Positions 2,120-60,482 of a stretch of 60,482 nt of DNA are shown piece after piece. The stretch spans positions 1 to 60,482 of the forward strand of contig CAYWDJ010000001.1 in NCBI GenBank assembly GCA_964457005.1. The letters are read 5' to 3'. Source of the DNA: an uncultured Planctomycetia bacterium (lineage in GTDB: Bacteria; Omnitrophota; Gorgyraeia; Tantalellales; Tantalellaceae). The notes below the pieces were generated by a model. That model saw nothing but the letters and a program-made list of their open reading frames with translations. It was not told the DNA's origin and ran no database searches. Each line of letters starts with the position of its first letter. Positions within the stretch are counted from its first letter, which is position 1. The translations under genes were made by a program, and so were the position numbers.

Positions 2120-3100
2120 ATGAATAATCTTGACCAAACGCCACATTTCGCTTCACTGACCCATGAGATGATAATCAGGATCGCCGAAGAGGAACTTAAT
2201 ATGCCATTAACCGGACTTTGCCGGCAATACAACAGCTACATTAACCGTATATTTGAGCTTGCCGCCGAAGACGGAACGGGGTTTGTCATAAAATTCTACC
2301 GACCGGGCAGATGGTCAAAACAAGCCCTGCAGGATGAACATGATTTTCTCCTGGAACTCTCGGGATCCGAGATCCCGGTCATTGCCCCGCTCCCGCTAAA
2401 GGACTCTAATACCATAGGCAGGTCCGGAGACATCATGTTAGCTATTTTTCAAAAAAAGGGAGGCCGTAATTCTGACGAGTTCTCTGTAGAACAATGGCTG
2501 GAACTGGGACGCCTGATAGCAAGAGTGCACAATATCGGTGCCCTGCGCGCGCCAAAAGACCGCATCACGCTTACTCCGGCAAGTGTTACACAAGACCACA
2601 TAAATTATATCCTTGAACATGATCTTATCCCCAAAGAACTTTCAGGCAGGTTCAGAGATATATCAGAAGAACTTATTAGCCTCATAGACCCGCTTTTTAA
2701 GGATAAGCCGCTTATCCGCATACATGGTGACTGCTATTCGGCTAATATCATACACCGTCCCGACGAATCTTTTTATCTAATTGATTTTGATGACATGGCC
2801 ACAGGCACGCCGATTCATGATGTATGGATGCTTCTACCTGGATACTTAAAAGATTCACGTCCCGAACTGAACCTTTTCATTGAAGGATATGAGTGTTTTC
2901 GGAATTTTGATCGGAATGATCTAAAACTTATTGAGCCGCTGAGAGCTATGCGCTATATACATTTCACAACATGGTGCGCCCATCAGGTATCCGACAAAGG
3001 TTTTACCAACCTCGCCCCCGGCTGGGGCACGAACCAGTACTGGCAAACTGAAATAAACGACCTTACCGAACAGATCTCAAGAATAAAGCATACGATATAA
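2120..3100 (+). CDS. srkA: Stress-response Ser/Thr kinase SrkA (YihE/RdoA), aminoglycoside-phosphotransferase fold
   Basis: Collinear with E. coli YihE by eye: YNSYINRIFEL, FVIKFYRPGRW, HGDCYSANIIH, LIDFDD, IEPLRAMRYIHFTTW. Confidence 0.85.
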   Translation: MNNLDQTPHFASLTHEMIIRIAEEELNMPLTGLCRQYNSYINRIFELAAEDGTGFVIKFYRPGRWSKQALQDEHDFLLELSGSEIPVIAPLPLKDSNTIGRSGDIMLAIFQKKGGRNSDEFSVEQWLELGRLIARVHNIGALRAPKDRITLTPASVTQDHINYILEHDLIPKELSGRFRDISEELISLIDPLFKDKPLIRIHGDCYSANIIHRPDESFYLIDFDDMATGTPIHDVWMLLPGYLKDSRPELNLFIEGYECFRNFDRNDLKLIEPLRAMRYIHFTTWCAHQVSDKGFTNLAPGWGTNQYWQTEINDLTEQISRIKHTI

Positions 3101-3132
3101 GAGTTGGCATGGGGTTTGAACGATCAAAAAGA

Positions 3133-3624
3133 TCATTTCTCAGGAAACAAAACTGTGGTTTTATGCACGAACAGGGCCCGGACCTTATCCCAGAATTCTC
3201 CTCCCAGAACAAAGAAGCTAAATACAAACAAGACGTCTCCCGCCACTCCTAACATTATCTGGTTTGCCTCATACCCCGGCACCAAATGTCCGACATAAGG
3301 CATTACCCACCCGAAGAGTATAGGCAACATGAACATAATAAGTCCGATACGATACCGTGCAAGACTAACCGTTTCGGGGGGAGCACATTTTTTCAGCCAA
3401 CTGAAAATAATGCCCTTCAGCTGCTCATACCCTGATTTACCGAGAACCGCAACGGCACAGACTATCCCTATCTGAGGGATAACAAAGAAGAACAAGGTGT
3501 TTAGTACCGTTTTTGCCGTTGACGAAAGTCCTGAAGCAGCCACGAATGGGATCAAGAGAGTCGTGGCCTGTCCTAATACAAAAATGGTTACACCTGTAAC
3601 AAAGCGGCTTTTTGATATCGTCAT
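3133..3624 (-). CDS. Hypothetical integral membrane protein (about 4 TM)
   Basis: 163 aa and strongly hydrophobic, with four helix-length segments. No recognisable motif. Confidence 0.5.
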   Translation of the reverse strand: MTISKSRFVTGVTIFVLGQATTLLIPFVAASGLSSTAKTVLNTLFFFVIPQIGIVCAVAVLGKSGYEQLKGIIFSWLKKCAPPETVSLARYRIGLIMFMLPILFGWVMPYVGHLVPGYEANQIMLGVAGDVLFVFSFFVLGGEFWDKVRALFVHKTTVLFPEK

Positions 3625-6410: not shown

Positions 6411-9400
6411 TTATTGGGTACTAATATTCTTTGAACCGTCGGTCTGAACGGCGTACCTAAAGACTATCGTCGCGCTGACCGCAGGGACAACGGTAATACT
6501 TGTAACCTCCATCTTACCGTAATAACCTTCCTGGGTGATAAAAACAAAAACATCACCGGCAACCATATTAGCCGCAAAAACCGCATAACCACTTAACGGC
6601 GCAATATCCAGGCTGTCAAAAGTAGAAGTTCCCGTGACATCCTGTATCTGGGCTGAGCCAAGGGCGTTAAATCTGTTTGTCAGAACATAATTAAAATCAC
6701 CCGCATTGAGCGCGACCTGGGAACCGGATGAGAAATCAAACCCTTTAGGATTTCCCGCCGTGTTCATTACAGAACCGTTCTTTGTCTGAAGCGACGAACT
6801 TACCCCTCCGGACTCTTCGGTCTCTCCCGCCCCGGGCTGGACGGGAGTACGCGTGATCTTGGCCACACGTATTTCCTCAACGGTCGCCGACGGAAGACCG
6901 CTAGACTCGGCTACTTCCGGAGACAATGTCGCGTATATAAGGTTCCCCCTGAGATTTACTATCTTCATTTTCCCGTCTTCCAGCGCGAAAACCATATTTG
7001 TCCGGCCTGAAGTCCTTTGCTGCTGAAGAGTAGAACGTGGGGTCTGGGTCTTATCCCACTTCGTCTCGGCGGTAAAATTCCCTCCCCCCTGATCTATCCT
7101 ATTTATAAAAATAACAAGCCTTATGTCGGTAAACATATCAAAGTCGAACCTGATACCTTCCATAAGGTATGTTTTATTCCCGAGAAAATCGCGTGAAATA
7201 TAATCACTAAAAAGCGGGACATTCTTTGCTTCATAGGCTTCCGATATCTTTCTTACAGTCTCAGTTATGAGCTGGGAATAATCTATGTCTTTGTACATAA
7301 TACCGTTTATATTTGGAAACACCTTTATCGGGATCTCGTCACCGTCAACAGTAATTACTTTTATCAGAACCTGATACAGCCTGTTCGGGATAGGAACGAA
7401 CTGATGCCTTATGCTCTGATTCCGGGCAAGTTCATTCCATGTCCTTCCGTCATTTTCGGATATAAGAATTTTTTGAACCCTTTGCATTGTGGAAATCCTG
7501 CCGGTGATCTCAATATATCCCTGTCTCATTTCAGCATTTGTAAGGATCACATCTCCCGAAGCGTCCCTGAGGCTTATGGTGTTTACCCTTGCGTCATATA
7601 CCTGATAGAACCCGCTTAGCTCTCCGGGTGTGACTCTCACGCCCAGTCCACCGGTCCCACCCGGCCCCTGCGGCGCTCCCCCCGCCGGGCCTTTCGGTTT
7701 GTCCCCAGGACCATCAGGACCGCCGCCAGGGACTTGCGGCCCAGTCGGTGTCTTTGCCTGTTTTTTCAGGTATTCCTCGCGTTTATCCAGCACATCCTGA
7801 AGCTTATCCAGGATAGATAAATATTTTTTGCCGAGCGAATTATTATAATCGCCTCCGTATCCTTTGTAACTCTGCGTGGCTGCGTATTTAACTCTGGTAT
7901 CTGAAGAAGTGATCACTCCGGCCATACCATTGATCTGGCTTATTTCTATTATCGCCTGTTCGAATTTTATATCGCTGTCATTATATTTGAGTTTACTTAC
8001 CACTCCATCAAGGTCATTCACTGTGCTTTTCCACAGGACGAGCGTACCGTCCTGGGAACGGGCTATAACATTTTCTTCTGGCGCCGGACTGACATCAGAG
8101 AGGACAAGTATCTTTTTGAGCTGCTCGTAAACCTTAGGCGCGCTCTGCCTGATATACTGATACGCGGGATAACTATTCCAACCGCTTTGCACCTTCTGGA
8201 GATAGCTGTCGAGGTCGCTCTTGAGCATGTAGTGCTTGTAGGGTGTGTACGCTATGGCCATGCCTTCCTCTTCCTTGAACACAAGCACATAGTTCGGAGA
8301 ATAACCATCCCCAATATCCTTTATTATTTTTTTCTTTACCTGGTCATCCAAGAACCACCTTATCTCACGTATCTTAGACTCGAGCCAGTCGGCGTCATTC
8401 TGCCGGGCAAGGGTGTCCGAATGGGCTACCCTCAGATATGCCTCTATATCCCCTTCCATCCTGGGTTTGAGCTTGGACACACCTTTCGCGGCCATGTCCA
8501 GCTGCCGCGTGCCATCACTTATCGCTTTGGCCTCTTCCTCTCCCACCAATACCTTAATTTCCAGGATCTCACGGGACGTAGGTTCGGGAAGCTCCTGCCA
8601 TCTTTTTATAGCCATGTCCCATCCCTCGAACCAGGCCTGGTAATTCTGAATAACGGACCTTATTTCAACATTTTCGGTCGTTATGCCGTTCCTTATGGCA
8701 TCGGCTCTCGACTGCATATCCCCCAAAAGGCTGCCAAGATCCTTTGACTCCGTAAAAGGATAGTTTGCCGCATACTTGTCAGACTCGATCTTCGCTATGG
8801 CAGAGGTCATGGTGGTCATAGCCCTTTCCACCGTTTCATCCATCGAATAGCTGTAAGCGGTAGCCTTTCCTGACACTTCCTTCATGGGAAGATCATTTTC
8901 TATCTCGTTCACATTTCCTATAAACTGATTATACTGGTCCCTGCGGGTATCCCTGAGATGTTCGAATTCTTCTATCATCGTCATGCAATCGGCTACAAGC
9001 ACTTCTATCTTCGCCTTGTCATTAAAATGAAGCACAGCTACAACCTCCCGGGCCATATTATAAGCCTCAAAACATATGGATTTTTGCCTGTTCTCCTTTT
9101 CCAGTAATTCCTTGGTCACCTTCTTCTTGTCCATGTTACTCTGGAACTGCGGAATGAAAGCGTTCAGTACCTGCTTATGCCTTGCCGCCTGATCTGGCGG
9201 GGTGCGGGGGCCTATCTCCTCGGGGGCCTTGTTGTCACTAAGCGCCTTCAGGTACCTTTTTCTGATATCATAATATTCCTTCACCAGCATTTTTTCTTCT
9301 TTCTTCAGTTCCGCTATCCTGTCATCATAACTCTTATCCAGCTTATCTTGCGTCTCTTTTAGCGGCGTCATAAGCTTGCCTCCACCGATGTAATAATTTC

Positions 9401-33208: not shown

Positions 33209-33394
33209 CACCTTACCATATAAGCATTTACAACTCACGCCGACAGAGGATACCGTAAGATACCCCTTGAAGCCCCTATGCAGGAAACCTTAGCGTGCTC
33301 CACCCTTCCCGCAGCCGAATACAGCGGAACTGAAAATCTGCTCAACCCGATGTGCGGTAGTGACACTATCACCATAGAAGCTGCGTTGATATCT

Positions 33395-33500
33395 TTGATC
33401 AAGGCTCCTTCTTTTAGCCCCACTAGCTCTCACGGTGTTGGCTTGTGGATACTTCTAAGCTCGCTAGTTAACGAGCACTGTTGGGGCCCCGGAAGAGTAC
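33395..33500 (-). repeat. Relic of the modular intergenic repeat (U2-type modules)
   Basis: Plus strand ccttcttttagccccactagctctcacggtgttggcttg matches 58605-58642 with 1 mismatch. The following ttctaagctcgctagttaacgagcactgttgggg parallels 60049-60085. Confidence 0.5.
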
Positions 33501-34104: not shown

Positions 34105-34310
34105 AAAAATCCCACCGCCTTGGATGGCAGTGGGATTTGATTTTTGGTGGAGGTGCCGGGATTCGATATGCGGTGGAGTTGTAACTTGTTCTACCCCATA
34201 CACTTATGACATAACTTGTTTATTTGTAAAAGATTTTGGATTCCACACAGCATACAACATCTTACAAGGTTTTCCCCTGGATTCACTTTGGATGGGCGCG
34301 TTTTGGGCAC
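34105..34310 (-). repeat. Long copy A of the repeat: ~165-nt body + 22-nt tRNA-like 3' end + terminator (possible structured RNA or att-like site)
   Basis: The minus strand starts at the HK stop and runs ...GCGCCCATCCAAAGTGAATCCAGGGGAAAACCTTG...ATCGAATCCCGGCACCTCCACCA (core 34166-34145). It continues AAAATCAA-ATCCCACTGCC(6)GGCGGTGGGAT-TTTTGTG. The hairpin (34109-34136) has a G.U on the minus strand and a C.A on the plus strand. The plus-strand T-run also lets it terminate the convergent 33575..34075 gene. Confidence 0.75.
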
Positions 34311-51536: not shown

Positions 51537-52324
51537 ATTTTATTCAATTCTTCAAGAACTCCGGGCACAGCTGATTGCAATGCTTGAAAAATAGTTTGTA
51601 TTTTTTCTTTGTCAGGCTCGCCGGTCCATTCATTCATAAAGATTTTTTTAAATTCAATAGATAGAACACATGCTGCATCGGGAAATTTTTCATGCACAAA
51701 TTCAGGGAAATGTCCCCCGCGAAACTTAATATTTTCTCTAACGTCTAATTTTCTTCCAAAATAATTAAAACTAGACAAATCATCAATGAAATTATTAATA
51801 ACACCCTTCCAACGAGATCTATCGAGCATCGTTCCTGTTCCAATATTCACTTCAGGATTGTCTTTGCCCGCAGCAGGCTGAGCATCAGGTCCATTTCGCC
51901 TATGGTTATAGGAATGCACATCAAAAACAACAAACTTTCCAAATTTACTCTCAAATTCTGATAGCACATCATGAATATTTTTGTAAAACAAGTCATATGT
52001 CTGTAACGAACTTCTCACAAATTTCTCGCCTGGTTTTGATTCCCAAACATTAAGCCCCCAAGCATCATCAGGAGTCAAATAAACAGCCTTATCCCTTGCG
52101 CGATTCAAATCAACCTCAAATCGTGATGTCTTTACAATCAAACTATTCTCAACGACACCTGTCCACGCTCCAGTGAAAGGATCTTCCTCTCGCAAACGAT
52201 CCTCACTGCTCAATGCCATTAACTTTAAGGCTTCTTCGCTAAGCTGGTGCCCATCATGTATGGCGGTAGCAATCACCGGAACATCATTATTTTTTAAATT
52301 TAATAAATAGTCCATATTTGTCAT
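51533..52324 (-). CDS. N-formylglutamate amidohydrolase (FGase) family protein
   Basis: IHDGH, EEDPFT, DLNR, VFDVHSY and NIGTG motifs in the order expected for the FGase/HutG-like fold. 263 aa. Confidence 0.7.
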   Translation of the reverse strand: MTNMDYLLNLKNNDVPVIATAIHDGHQLSEEALKLMALSSEDRLREEDPFTGAWTGVVENSLIVKTSRFEVDLNRARDKAVYLTPDDAWGLNVWESKPGEKFVRSSLQTYDLFYKNIHDVLSEFESKFGKFVVFDVHSYNHRRNGPDAQPAAGKDNPEVNIGTGTMLDRSRWKGVINNFIDDLSSFNYFGRKLDVRENIKFRGGHFPEFVHEKFPDAACVLSIEFKKIFMNEWTGEPDKEKIQTIFQALQSAVPGVLEELNKI

Positions 52325-52380
52325 CTTTTTTAAAATAGATCTTCAAAGCACTAGATCAACGCTTCCTATAAATCATGCTA

Positions 52381-52410
52381 ATTATACCTTAAAATGAAAA
52401 TAATAGACAA
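52381..52410 (-). promoter_or_regulatory. Candidate promoter of the FGase-QEGLA-ligase-pgs operon
   Basis: Minus strand reads TTGTCT - 18 nt - TATAAT, 57 nt upstream of ATG 52324. Confidence 0.4.
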
Positions 52411-52540
52411 TACTGTTATTGGCAATACCTCCCTACAATTTTCACATGTTTTTTTGAGGCGGAAAGACAAAAATGGCGACCTGTATCATAAAGCCGCCTG
52501 GGAAATGGGCACGGTGTGAGCACACATGAAGTCTCCCTAA

Positions 52541-52715
52541 AAATAAAAACCCCAAGTCATTATTAAATAACAACTTAGGGTTTCTATTTTTATTTGGTGG
52601 AGGTGTACGGGATACAAAAACCGAACCATGTGAGGTTTTTGAACCCCGGAATCTACACAAGCTATGAGCGAAGCGAATAGCAAAGAATTAGACGAAGTCT
52701 GATTCTTACATTTAA
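52541..52715 (-). repeat. Copy C of the repeat (short body + diverged core + terminator), second unit of a tandem array
   Basis: Minus strand AGACTTCGTCTAATTC...CCGGGGTTCAAAAACCTC...TATCCCGTACACCTCCACCA (core 52611-52595), then AATAAAAATAGAA-ACCCTAAGT(15)ACTTGGGGT-TTTTATTTTT. The hairpin has a G.U on the minus strand only. Confidence 0.6.
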
Positions 52716-53020
52716 AACAAAAAACCCGGAAGAGGATTTATTCTCTTCCGGGTTTAGTTTTAAATGGTGGAGGTGCCGGGATTCGATATGCGATGGAGTT
52801 GTAACTTGTTCTCCTCCATACACTTATGGTGATAACTCCTTTATTTAGAAAAGTTTAGGTTCTTACAACATCTTACAAGGTTTTCCCCTAGATTCACTTT
52901 GGATGGGCGCGTTTTCGCTGCGCCTTCTCTCGCTTTGCTCGAGGATCCTTCTGGACCCGCCTTGACAACTAGAACGGTGTCGAGCACACAATAGTGGCGG
53001 AGAAACTACACAAACAACTC
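52716..53020 (-). repeat. Long copy B of the repeat: U2-type module + ~165-nt body + 22-nt tRNA-like 3' end + terminator
   Basis: Begins 5 nt after the stop at 53025. Shares with copy A a 48-nt block (1 mismatch) and a 47-nt block (1 mismatch) flanking a diverged middle. Core 52786-52765; perfect hairpin CCCGGAAGAG/CTCTTCCGGG (52725-52753) plus a T-run. Confidence 0.75.
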
Positions 53021-53024
53021 GCTG

Positions 53025-53753
53025 CTATTGCTTGAACTTCTTAGGGAATTGCTTGATCATGCCCTCGGCCAATAGAGCAGCGATCTTAAGTGCATGCACA
53101 ACTGCCTCATCAGAGACTTTTACTTCCGCAGCATAATCTTTCTTGAGCCGTAAGTCTGCTTGCATAGCGAGATACTCCAGATGCTGGTAAAATATATCTT
53201 TCAAAGTCTGTTTCTCCCAAAGAGGGTTTCTGGCCAGGGCAAATAGACCCGCGATATTATCGGCATTATTCCGTCCCTTCTCTTTGGCCTTGTTCAAGGC
53301 CTCGACATCCCCGTTCTTTGTCGCCTTGACGATCTCCATGGCAATAAGGATATGTTGCTGTAGGAGATCGGATAACCTATTCCCGGCCCAGCCTCCGTAG
53401 TAAGGCGTTATGATGTCACCGATTATCTCCTGATTTTTAACAAGTTGCTTCTTCACAACAGCCACATCATCAAGACCTGACATCACGCTTACGACATACC
53501 TCCCGGTCCAGATCACATCATATTCCCATAGCTGTCTCAAGAGAAGCCTGAAATTAATAGAGGATTCGGTGTAGGGCGGTAATGCTCTCGCTGGCCTCCA
53601 GTCGAATATTTTCTCAACAAAAGAAGGCACTAAGTCCGCCGGCTTCCGGTTGAAAACTTGTGTAATGCTACTAAATACCTCGTAGCGGGTCCATATTACG
53701 CCACTCACAAAACTTAAGAAAACTACAGCTAAAATAATTATTGATCTCTTCAT
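53025..53753 (-). CDS. Hypothetical exported/anchored helical protein (242 aa)
   Basis: N-terminal anchor MKRSIIILAVVFLSFVSGVIW. The rest looks helical and I recognise no family. Flanked on both sides by repeat copies. Confidence 0.55.
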   Translation of the reverse strand: MKRSIIILAVVFLSFVSGVIWTRYEVFSSITQVFNRKPADLVPSFVEKIFDWRPARALPPYTESSINFRLLLRQLWEYDVIWTGRYVVSVMSGLDDVAVVKKQLVKNQEIIGDIITPYYGGWAGNRLSDLLQQHILIAMEIVKATKNGDVEALNKAKEKGRNNADNIAGLFALARNPLWEKQTLKDIFYQHLEYLAMQADLRLKKDYAAEVKVSDEAVVHALKIAALLAEGMIKQFPKKFKQ

Positions 53754-58574: not shown

Positions 58575-58930
58575 CATTATCTCTTCGCTTCGCTCGAGGA
58601 TCCTTCTTTTAGCCCCACTAGCTCTCACGGTGTCGGCTTGCGGAACCTTCCATATCGCCTCTTAAACTCGCACGGTTTGGACACACTTGAAGCCTCCCAA
58701 AAAAACAAAAAACCCCAAGTCATTATTTTACAACAACTTAGGGCCTATATTTTTAAATGGTGGAGGTGCCGGGGTTAGATTAAGGGTGTTTTTGCAAACC
58801 CTCTATTTACGGTGCTTTCGCACTTATCTCGTGTATTTATAAGAAATTACAGAGTGCGGTTGTTTACATTTAGCTACATATGATTACAGATGTTTTGATG
58901 TGAAATGGGCACTGTTTGGGCTCTAACATA
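58575..58930 (-). repeat. Composite copy F: diverged ~165-nt body + 17-nt core + terminator + s1/U1/U2 modules
   Basis: The minus strand starts 2 nt after the HEPN stop: GCCCAAACAGTGCCCATTTC..., GTGC-GAAA-GCAC, AGGGT(10)ACCCT, ...CCCCGGCACCTCCACCA (core 58774-58758). The hairpin at 58712-58744 has a G.U on the minus strand only, then a T-run. Modules follow, including the 45-nt U1 (58634-58678). Confidence 0.65.
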
Positions 58931-59954: not shown

Positions 59955-60173
59955 CATTAAGGCATGCTTTCGCTGCGCCTTCGGCTTGCGGAACCTTCCA
60001 TATCGCCTCTAAAACTCGCACGGTTTCTCTCGCTTTGCTCGAGGATCCTTCTAAGCTCGCCTAGGAAGCTCGCACGGTGTGGGCACACATAAAGTCTTCA
60101 TACAAACAAAAAGCCCCAAACCGTTATGTTTCAACAACTTGGAGCTTCTGTTTTTAACTGGTGGAGGTGCCGG
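59955..60173 (-). repeat. Composite copy H: 15-nt core + terminator + s1/U2/U1 modules, upstream of the TA pair
   Basis: Minus strand ...CTCCGGCACCTCCACCA (core 60173-60159), then GTTAAAAACAGA-AGCTCCAA(19)TTGGGGCT-TTTTGTTTG, then AGACTTTATGTGTGCCCACACCGTGCGAG. U2 and the 45-nt U1 (59982-60026) follow. The hairpin has a G.U on the minus strand only. Confidence 0.65.
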
Positions 60174-60482
60174 AGGGTGTGCGGTTTAAGGCTAAAATAA
60201 GCCCCCTCAACACGGCTCCACCACGATTTGCACCAATTATCGCCCTACTAAGCTCCCTCTGCTGGACGAGTTTAGAACTTGGTTTTATTCAAAAGAAGCA
60301 AGAAAATTACAGCAAATCAAGTCCACTCCTTCCCAAGAGGGGTCAAAATCAAAACTATGGTCTTTTTTACTTAAACGTTTTCGACGCACAGTTTATAGAA
60401 GATGAGCGAAAAGTAATTTTTTTGATCGGCATCTTGTCTTTAAGAAGCTCGTATAAAAGTTCGCACCAATTCTCACAAGTAG

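Follow-up and report, generated by a model that had tools for sequence, protein, structure and literature searches.

What occupies a stretch of an Omnitrophota genome in which one gene ends and the next begins only 700 nt later? Omnitrophota are uncultivated bacteria with small genomes, and to our knowledge their mobile DNA is almost undescribed. The gap in question lies in a window of 60,482 nt (the whole stretch of DNA analysed here) from a MAG assigned to Candidatus Omnitrophota (1.77 Mb, 254 contigs). On the minus strand, along which all features below are read, it extends from the stop codon of a 242-aa ORF (53025) to the start codon of an FGase gene (52324). A mechanical ORF list contains only two frames inside it, of 53 and 72 aa, and both cross terminators or hairpins as well as repeats, in agreement with the initial annotation, which had described the gap as gene-free. 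That annotation had also read the gap as three tandem copies of one unit, termed B, C and D; this does not hold, as B and C repeat just 21 nt (86% identity) and a 15-nt T-run stretch. The gap is instead the seam of three different parts in an array of cassettes that end in copies of the ssrA 3′ end.

The array is defined by the sequence CACCTCCACCA, two copies of which, 170 nt apart, lie at 52775-52765 and 52605-52595 of the minus strand. With at most one mismatch allowed, the window holds eight matches to it, compared with 0.69 expected. ARAGORN detects one tmRNA gene in the genome, at 14362-14743 of contig C24, and window positions 52786-52764 are 100% identical to C24 14722-14744, which takes in the final 22 nt of ssrA, beginning in the T loop and finishing with CCA. 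The 22-nt core recognized in the initial annotation, with its two copies 170 nt apart, is therefore real, but its identity as the ssrA 3′ end had been missed. Core 1 (52786-52765) is the exact 22-nt tmRNA-gene end, TCGAATCCCGGCACCTCCACCA. Core 2 (52605-52595) is an 11-nt exact copy with diverged flanks (CCCGTA versus CCCGG), and the window cores other than core 1 have 11-16 nt in common with the ssrA end. ARAGORN called no tRNA or tmRNA gene in the window itself; Rfam gave no match at gathering thresholds over the whole window and only noise at E≤10 in 52300-53100, where the tmRNA model scored 6.1 bits at 52595-52647. The window cores are copies of the genome's own ssrA 3′ end. Their contig, C1, stops 313 nt past the last core; the ssrA gene is on C24, and C120 carries a second ssrA end.

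On its minus strand, the window has seven core copies (29429, 34155, 52605, 52775, 53867, 58768 and 60169), six of them exact and one with a single mismatch, and an intrinsic terminator comes after each. The array measures 31 kb. In the gap, the two terminators that had been placed behind the cores were confirmed as hairpins at 52755-52722 and 52586-52544, and the scan for terminator-like hairpins returned four where 0.9 were expected. The stem of terminator 1 (52755-52722) is lengthened by an outer A/T-rich inverted repeat at 52766-52709 that begins at the CA of CCA. Terminator 2 (52592-52538, with its hairpin part at 52586-52544) has a long A/T-rich stem and shares 87% identity over 61 nt with 58768-58708, placing it in the same class as the terminator behind core 58768. 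The one degenerate core, AACCTCCACCA at 53867-53857, is the seventh copy of the ssrA end and closes an AcrB/OEP cassette; TTCAAAACTAAACCC and a terminator come next. Because this core has a terminator of its own, the 242-aa gene (53753-53025) forms a cassette by itself, as the sole gene of a 1.09-kb unit with cores 53867-53857 and 52775 as its bounds. Searches of Pfam and NCBIfam gave no match for its product, and two further metagenome contigs code for the very same protein.

Downstream of the 242-aa gene, an s1-like palindromic motif and one copy of the U2 repeat (52980-52927) together occupy 52998-52927. The U2 module noted in B is thus present, but it is not specific to the array: U2 is a dispersed repeat of about 54 nt, of which the genome has at least 29 copies, spread over no fewer than 20 contigs and many contexts (nhmmer E=1.1e-10 for the copy in B), and its alignment revealed no conserved RNA fold. 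The B body follows at 52925-52788; it is a conserved right-arm module that is 85% identical over 161 nt to a second copy, A, at 34304-34145 and, when aligned with the cassette ends of three other genera, whatever their cargo, reaches a column identity of 77% across about 165 nt. It begins with a degenerate GTGCCCA-N4-GYGCCCAT box, in which two GTGCCCA repeats are 11 nt apart, and it holds TTGTAAGA/TGTATAA direct repeats. A search for conserved RNA structure in the B body was negative (-4.3 kcal/mol, covariation term 0.06). Since this arm is kept in four genera regardless of cargo, carries direct repeats phased by 11 nt and has no RNA fold, it looks like a recombination site in DNA that would be bound by protein. 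The one-gene cassette 53867-52765 appears to be closed by core 1, with the B body as its right arm.

Part D (52534-52501) consists of the motif AGACTTCATGTGTGC and the box GTGCTCACACCGTGCCCAT (52523-52505), which contains two GTGCYCA repeats 11 nt apart and deviates from the pattern at one position. As D carries the box that is also found in the B body, we assign it as the putative left arm of the next island, an 18-kb block that would extend to core 34155, and not as a truncated third unit. Besides D, the GTGCCCA box matches in the window at 34310 and 58923 (three matches versus 0.15 expected), and in relatives too it is found downstream of a core plus terminator. The recurrence of the s1 motif of D (52534-52509) at 60097-60072 was reproduced, with none expected by chance, and so was the proposal that conservation spans both sides of each terminator: the core lies upstream and the GTGCCCA box downstream. 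Beyond D, a third terminator-like hairpin (52498-52475) falls within a diverged half copy of U2, and a promoter-like site, TTGTCT-18-TATAAT (52410-52381), precedes the FGase/MATCAP/ATP-grasp operon with its start codon at 52324. The order of a cassette therefore appears to be a core with its terminator, a GTGCCCA box, the promoter with the cargo, a second GTGCCCA box, the conserved arm and a closing core.

The arrangement of the gap is found outside this assembly. The 242-aa gene, B, core 1, terminator 1 and C are all present on a contig of JGI sample 3300005932, which breaks off within core 2; contig Ga0075122_10058038, from another JGI metagenome, starts just past terminator 1 and continues through C, core 2, terminator 2 and D to the FGase promoter. 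Both are 100% identical to the window over the shared parts. As the B-C and C-D-FGase junctions recur on contigs from two JGI metagenomes, the order of the units is no artefact of a single assembly, and because the B and C bodies are unique sequence, a collapse of copy number is of no concern. Strain-level variants were not encountered, the two other contigs with parts of the gap matching the window exactly, and the exact FGase protein has no record elsewhere.

Arrays of the same design occur in nine related Omnitrophota genera of the same family. In these, ssrA itself supplies the first core copy with its genuine 3′ end, a divergent tRNA-Leu(CAG) gene lies upstream, and one to four additional co-oriented core copies follow downstream on the same contig. 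The present genome has 13 core copies, compared with 0-6 in relatives. Genes between the cores are accessory and co-oriented and differ between relatives. The cargo in the window comprises a nucleotidyltransferase (NTase/HEPN) with a small partner ORF, an AcrB/OEP RND efflux system and the 18-kb block from FGase to a histidine kinase; that in relatives includes Fic, CorA, MscS, antiporters, a helicase and a penicillin-binding-type protein. At window positions 59949-58688, the nucleotidyltransferase/HEPN cassette matches, with 78.6% DNA identity, the cassette that comes first after ssrA in genome G006. It thus occupies different array positions in two genera, the copy in the window following the end of another cassette. 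We infer that the array cassettes are mobile, without an integrase of their own.

Two hallmarks of ssrA islands are therefore found in these arrays, namely units bounded by direct repeats identical to the resident ssrA 3′ end, and cargo and copy number that vary among relatives. Another, a recombinase gene next to attL, is absent here. No recombinase gene is present in the window between 27 and 60 kb; the genome encodes XerD, XerC, a generic tyrosine recombinase (C20), an integrase fragment (C11) and, on other contigs, two serine recombinases, the large one on C189, and an excisionase-type HTH gene lies next to a C unit on contig C54. Scans of 10-26 genomes revealed no array recombinase other than a C-terminal tyrosine-recombinase fragment of 109 aa in G023, which adjoins ssrA at the ssrA-proximal end of the island. 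Most of the ten array-bearing relatives have only two Xer-type genes, XerC and XerD. Since MAGs are incomplete, a mobile helper recombinase could have escaped these scans.

The closest counterparts are the ssrA islands of Dehalococcoides, which are arranged in tandem with repeats of about 20 bp as bounds (McMurdie et al. 2011, PMC3146451). There as here, co-oriented direct repeats of the ssrA 3′ end, about 20 nt long, set off one island from the next downstream of ssrA, the islands carry accessory cargo that varies (in Dehalococcoides between strains), and integration genes are often absent. A serine-recombinase module, DsiB, occupies attL of 16 of the 31 Dehalococcoides islands, while about half of the islands lack an integration module and were read by the authors as cis-mobilizable (PMC3146451). 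By contrast, none of the arrays examined here contains a complete recombinase, the cassettes can be as short as 170 nt, the repeats measure 11-22 nt, and behind each core lie an intrinsic terminator and a conserved box. The arrays also resemble the CIMEs of the site-specific accretion concept, developed for streptococcal ICE/IME arrays (PMC5704250), in that attL and attR are retained, integration and transfer genes are lost, and a tRNA-type gene carries the elements in tandem at its 3′ end. CIMEs, however, are decayed elements of kilobase size with known helpers (PMC5704250), whereas the units described below form a defined family of about 200 nt at six kinds of tRNA-type genes in 26 genera, for which no helper was found. 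The ssrA-end cassette array is thus an already known kind of structure; the new element is the family of retargeted units of about 200 nt.

On the basis of these results, we consider it probable, although well short of certain, that the gap is a seam in an array of cassettes inserted successively at the ssrA 3′ end or at its copies. According to this model, a circular element with an arm-core-arm site would recombine with the ssrA end or with any copy of it. Recombination at the cores would be site-specific and, as the arrays encode no recombinase, the enzyme must now act in trans; both the recombination step and the supply of its enzyme in trans are deduced from the organization of the arrays. 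The terminator behind each core may originally have ended the tmRNA transcript, and in the array such terminators may shield neighbouring cassettes from each other. The units of about 200 nt would be located at tRNA and tmRNA gene 3′ ends, with further copies arising in tandem or at other cores.

Unit C is the part of the seam that gives access to this family. From core to core it covers 159 nt (52764-52606; nhmmer E=2.4e-43, 55.6 bits with covariance model R1) and contains neither a credible ORF nor a promoter-like site. Its parts are terminator 1, a second hairpin (52707-52683), ATTCGCT..CTCAT, GTGTAG (52658-52653) and a long hairpin (52648-52608). What had been taken for a copy of the s1 motif at the start of C, AGACTTCG, lies in the stem and loop of hairpin 2, in which two base pairs are exchanged in a compensatory manner in the paralogue on C54, which reads AGCCTTCGGCT. 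The acceptor-like arm of unit C, however, is paired at only four of seven positions, and its duplex energy is no better than that of shuffled sequences. The initial annotation had considered the B-to-C interval an empty cassette or site. As unit C is bounded by the same site as the gene-carrying cassettes, 'empty cassette' is a fair label for this cargo-less unit, but it is not a mere empty site: with its conserved hairpins, unit C appears to be a decayed yet complete cargo-less member of the family of about 200 nt found at tRNA and tmRNA gene ends. Like a CIME, it has putative att sites at both ends and no integration or transfer genes inside.

A profile search identified relatives of unit C as units of 170-225 nt, three of them on C120 and one each on C54, C19 and C11 of the same genome, and others in G002, G003 and G014, as well as units behind tRNA-Leu genes in G002 (L005) and at locus L021. 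Two 216-nt units of G002 are 100% identical exactly from core to core and have unrelated flanks, one lying behind ssrA and the other at the fourth core; no other observation speaks as clearly for the movement or copying of units at the cores. A census with a covariance model of the 3′ hairpin over 54 genomes from 43 genera of the bacterial family found the family in 32 genomes and 26 genera, at 1-11 copies each. At 30 fetched loci, a tRNA or tmRNA gene lies upstream on the same strand for 24 of 39 matches, mostly 81-142 nt away, and in 12 matches the final 16 nt reproduce the 3′ end of that gene exactly. The genes ahead of the units are those for tRNA-Leu (with four acceptor sequences), Gln, Pro and Ser and for tmRNA. 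That the copies include CCA is uninformative as a sign of an RNA intermediate, since 31 of the 32 tRNA genes encode CCA.

The 5′ arm of these units is complementary to the tRNA-derived strand, with 79% of cells paired as opposed to 67% in shuffles (0 of 500 reach 79%) and 39-53% in slid controls. Double changes number 60 where 25.6 were expected, although these covariation counts derive from a model-fitted alignment and are somewhat biased. The match to the acceptor is perfect over 7 bp at tRNA-Leu in G002 and at tRNA-Ser on C11, and the C120 unit is likewise well paired. At some loci, the repeat runs on for 60-110 nt past the second copy and thus amounts to 1.5 tandem units, indicating that unequal crossing-over also shapes the arrays; the extended repeats at C-family loci could come from this process instead. 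In the tandem set L116, decay of the core increases with distance from the tRNA gene. The covariation of the C-family hairpin and the variety of its tRNA gene hosts exceed what a model of duplex att sites needs. Tentatively, the units of about 200 nt may represent an element that is retargetable and spread throughout the family; its end, in the form of RNA or single-stranded DNA, would adopt a fold that imitates the acceptor/T-stem of the adjacent tRNA or tmRNA gene, an idea that we regard as possible but doubtful.

A precedent for such units is known from Escherichia coli, where four RtT units of 178 nt (RF00391, 133-138 bits each) follow tyrT; each of them closes with 19 nt identical to the 3′ end of tRNA-Tyr and has the complementary stretch GGGGAAGGAT upstream. 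We know of no RtT unit that serves as the boundary of a gene cassette. Both families consist of non-coding tandem units of about 180 nt behind a tRNA gene, with an exact copy of its 3′ end including CCA (19 nt in E. coli RtT, 16 nt in Omnitrophota) and a complementary stretch upstream. They differ in sequence: RF00391 gave no match at E≤0.1 in the window region or at five Omnitrophota loci and blastn performed no better than on shuffles, so that common descent with RtT was rejected. RtT is co-transcribed with the tRNA, whereas a terminator follows every copy here; the processed rttR RNA derives from one RtT unit (rttR/tpr; Bosl and Kersten 1991, cited in PMC3318445).

The parallel with RtT bears on whether the units act as RNA. 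Transcribed C-family units, and perhaps all core-plus-terminator units, might fold as mimics of the tRNA acceptor/T-stem, be excised by tRNA-processing enzymes in the manner of the RtT RNA of the E. coli tyrT operon, and spread by duplication; this is the main competing scenario. The covariation of the 5′ arm with the tRNA-derived 3′ strand at different tRNA genes, the perfect 7-bp acceptor matches at tRNA-Leu of G002 and tRNA-Ser of C11, the compensatory changes in hairpin 2, the complementary stretches of E. coli RtT units with their 19-nt tRNA-Tyr end copy, and the loci with 1.5 tandem units and long repeats all agree with this scenario. Covariation, however, cannot separate a hairpin in RNA from one in folded DNA. 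Moreover, a terminator stands between each tRNA or tmRNA gene and the unit, unit C lacks an internal promoter-like site and has lost its acceptor-like pairing (four of seven positions, with an energy no better than shuffles), and Rfam has no match. Since action at the RNA level also leaves unexplained the gene-carrying cassettes with the same cores and the identical G002 units in unrelated flanks, we judge it unlikely as an account of the locus. A folded DNA site is the basis of another proposal, in which the ssrA end would correspond to attI and the 'inverse core, loop, core' hairpins to folded single-stranded sites, as in attC and the CTX phage, served by one recombinase in trans. Like integron cassettes, those of the array are co-oriented and without a recombinase of their own, cargo-less ones exist, and the cassette-end imperfect inverted repeat contains the core in C-family units and ATCGTGGTG-type arms; each cassette ends in a hairpin of 60-85 nt including the core, pairing between core and inverse core is significant in the C-family units and in the ATCGTGGTG-type arms at 60159, on C54 and at L010, and the arm covariation would be accounted for. 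Nonetheless, many cassette ends lack an inverse core, among them the B/A-type arms and the arm at 58768, and in unit C of the window it is decayed. The cores are unlike GTTRRRY, a common promoter is missing, the anchor is the end of an RNA gene, and the cassettes reach 18 kb with their own promoter and terminator, unlike those of integrons. The genome has no IntI-type integrase, its third, generic tyrosine recombinase scoring below every NCBIfam cut-off including those for integron integrases, and its best dif-like site does not resemble the core. An integron-like system is accordingly very improbable.

The units could also be inert scars of decay, remodelled by deletion or unequal crossing-over, or REP-like hairpins spread by RAYT-type Y1 transposases. 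In this direction point the degenerate core 2 and hairpin foot of unit C, the core decay away from the tRNA gene in L116, a GTAG located 5′ of the hairpin foot in the fashion of REPs, and Y1_Tnp genes in 22 of 26 genomes. Inert remnants are difficult to reconcile, however, with size, order of parts and pairing that are kept across 26 genera, or with 100% identical copies at two G002 cores; at 1-11 copies per genome, nearly all behind tRNA or tmRNA genes, the units are also unlike REPs. The RAYT-like gene of this genome, on C73, is flanked by unrelated GGGGGACACAATAC repeats, and an origin from REP/RAYT elements was rejected. We rate decay scars and REP-like spread together as quite improbable, and retain successive insertion at the ssrA end as the preferred explanation of the seam.

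Two further candidates were tried and set aside. A scan of IMG/VR with the 17-nt core, for an attP site of phages or plasmids, returned 73 contigs, most of which have phage tmRNA-type 3′ ends and none the arms; ARAGORN called a tmRNA in 38 of the 73. A Xer/dif module was dismissed because the best dif-like site of the genome (C9 6029) is unlike the core.

The seam illustrates how accessory genes of Omnitrophota such as efflux pumps, toxin-antitoxin pairs and ion channels are probably packaged, insulated by terminators and chained at the tmRNA gene with no resident integrase. Unit C reveals a compact and widespread element of about 200 nt, which offers a handle on the enzyme that moves such cassettes. 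The same family provides a handle on why repeats with tRNA 3′ ends originate downstream of tRNA genes; E. coli tyrT is an example, and the mode of action of its RtT repeats is still described as unknown. If the fold of the units proved to be in RNA, they would be the first counterpart of RtT outside enterobacteria and would imply a general, as yet unexplained, link between tRNA 3′ ends and the formation of repeats. If it proved to be in DNA, the ends of Omnitrophota ssrA and tRNA genes would be integron-like docking sites, at which hairpin-ended cassettes would be swapped by a recombinase supplied in trans.

The U2 module in front of the B arm in the 700-nt gap is a dispersed repeat of ~54 nt (ACACCGTGCGAG..GAAGGAGCCTCGAGCGAAGCGAGAGA), of which 29 or more copies are spread over 20 or more contigs, frequently in tandem. 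It occupies positions 52927-52980, 58585-58678, 59973-60080 and 33388-33438 of the window and occurs, among other genome contigs, on C24, C49, C60, C27, C43 and C141. A conserved RNA fold was not found for this repeat.

Besides the B/A-type arms, which carry no inverse core, a second type of arm is present at cassette ends. It carries tandem ATCGTGGTGRA repeats, the inverse of the last 7 nt of the core, and is seen at 60219-60230 in the window and in the loci L005, L006, L008 and L010 from relatives. An iteron resembling these arm repeats, AAATCGTGG, lies upstream of a RAYT-like Y1 transposase gene on contig C73 of the same metagenome-assembled genome (MAG) (2400-3200; Pfam Y1_Tnp, E=2e-16). 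Inverted GGGGGACACAATACTTAATTAA repeats on both sides of this gene give it a REPtron-like layout. Y1_Tnp genes were found in 22 of the 26 related genomes. In one relative, G004, the last core of the ssrA array directly precedes a pseudogene of the Y1_Tnp type that contains a single in-frame TAG (contig C3, 34888-35190; ~8889-9191 of locus L009).

On contig C11 (14439-15310), a C-terminal tyrosine integrase fragment immediately precedes a tRNA-Ser(GCU) gene that is intact. Four hairpin modules in tandem come after this tRNA gene, and the final one ends in 15 nt copied from the 3' end of tRNA-Ser. Contig C54 (9063-9705) carries at its end a unit of the cargo-less C-family whose core is deleted; behind this unit come the tRNA-Ser 3' end, copied in inverted orientation, and a 67-aa open reading frame of the excisionase type (HTH_17). 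Genome-wide, CCA is encoded in 31 of 32 tRNA genes, and many of these genes are followed by a terminator whose extended A/T-rich stem starts at or just after CCA, matching the style of the terminators behind cores.

The MAG harbours two differing ssrA 3' regions, one on C24 (14362-14743) and one on C120 (4843-4898). The latter is identical to that of the related genome G003, and three further cores follow it within 2.5 kb. Contig C120 may represent a second allele, or it may come from a related population and have been binned into this MAG by mistake.

The same 17-nt tmRNA 3' end is also found on 73 viral contigs from IMG/VR (L028-L100), in 38 of which ARAGORN calls a tmRNA. Several of these contigs look like they carry two-piece or permuted phage tmRNA genes.
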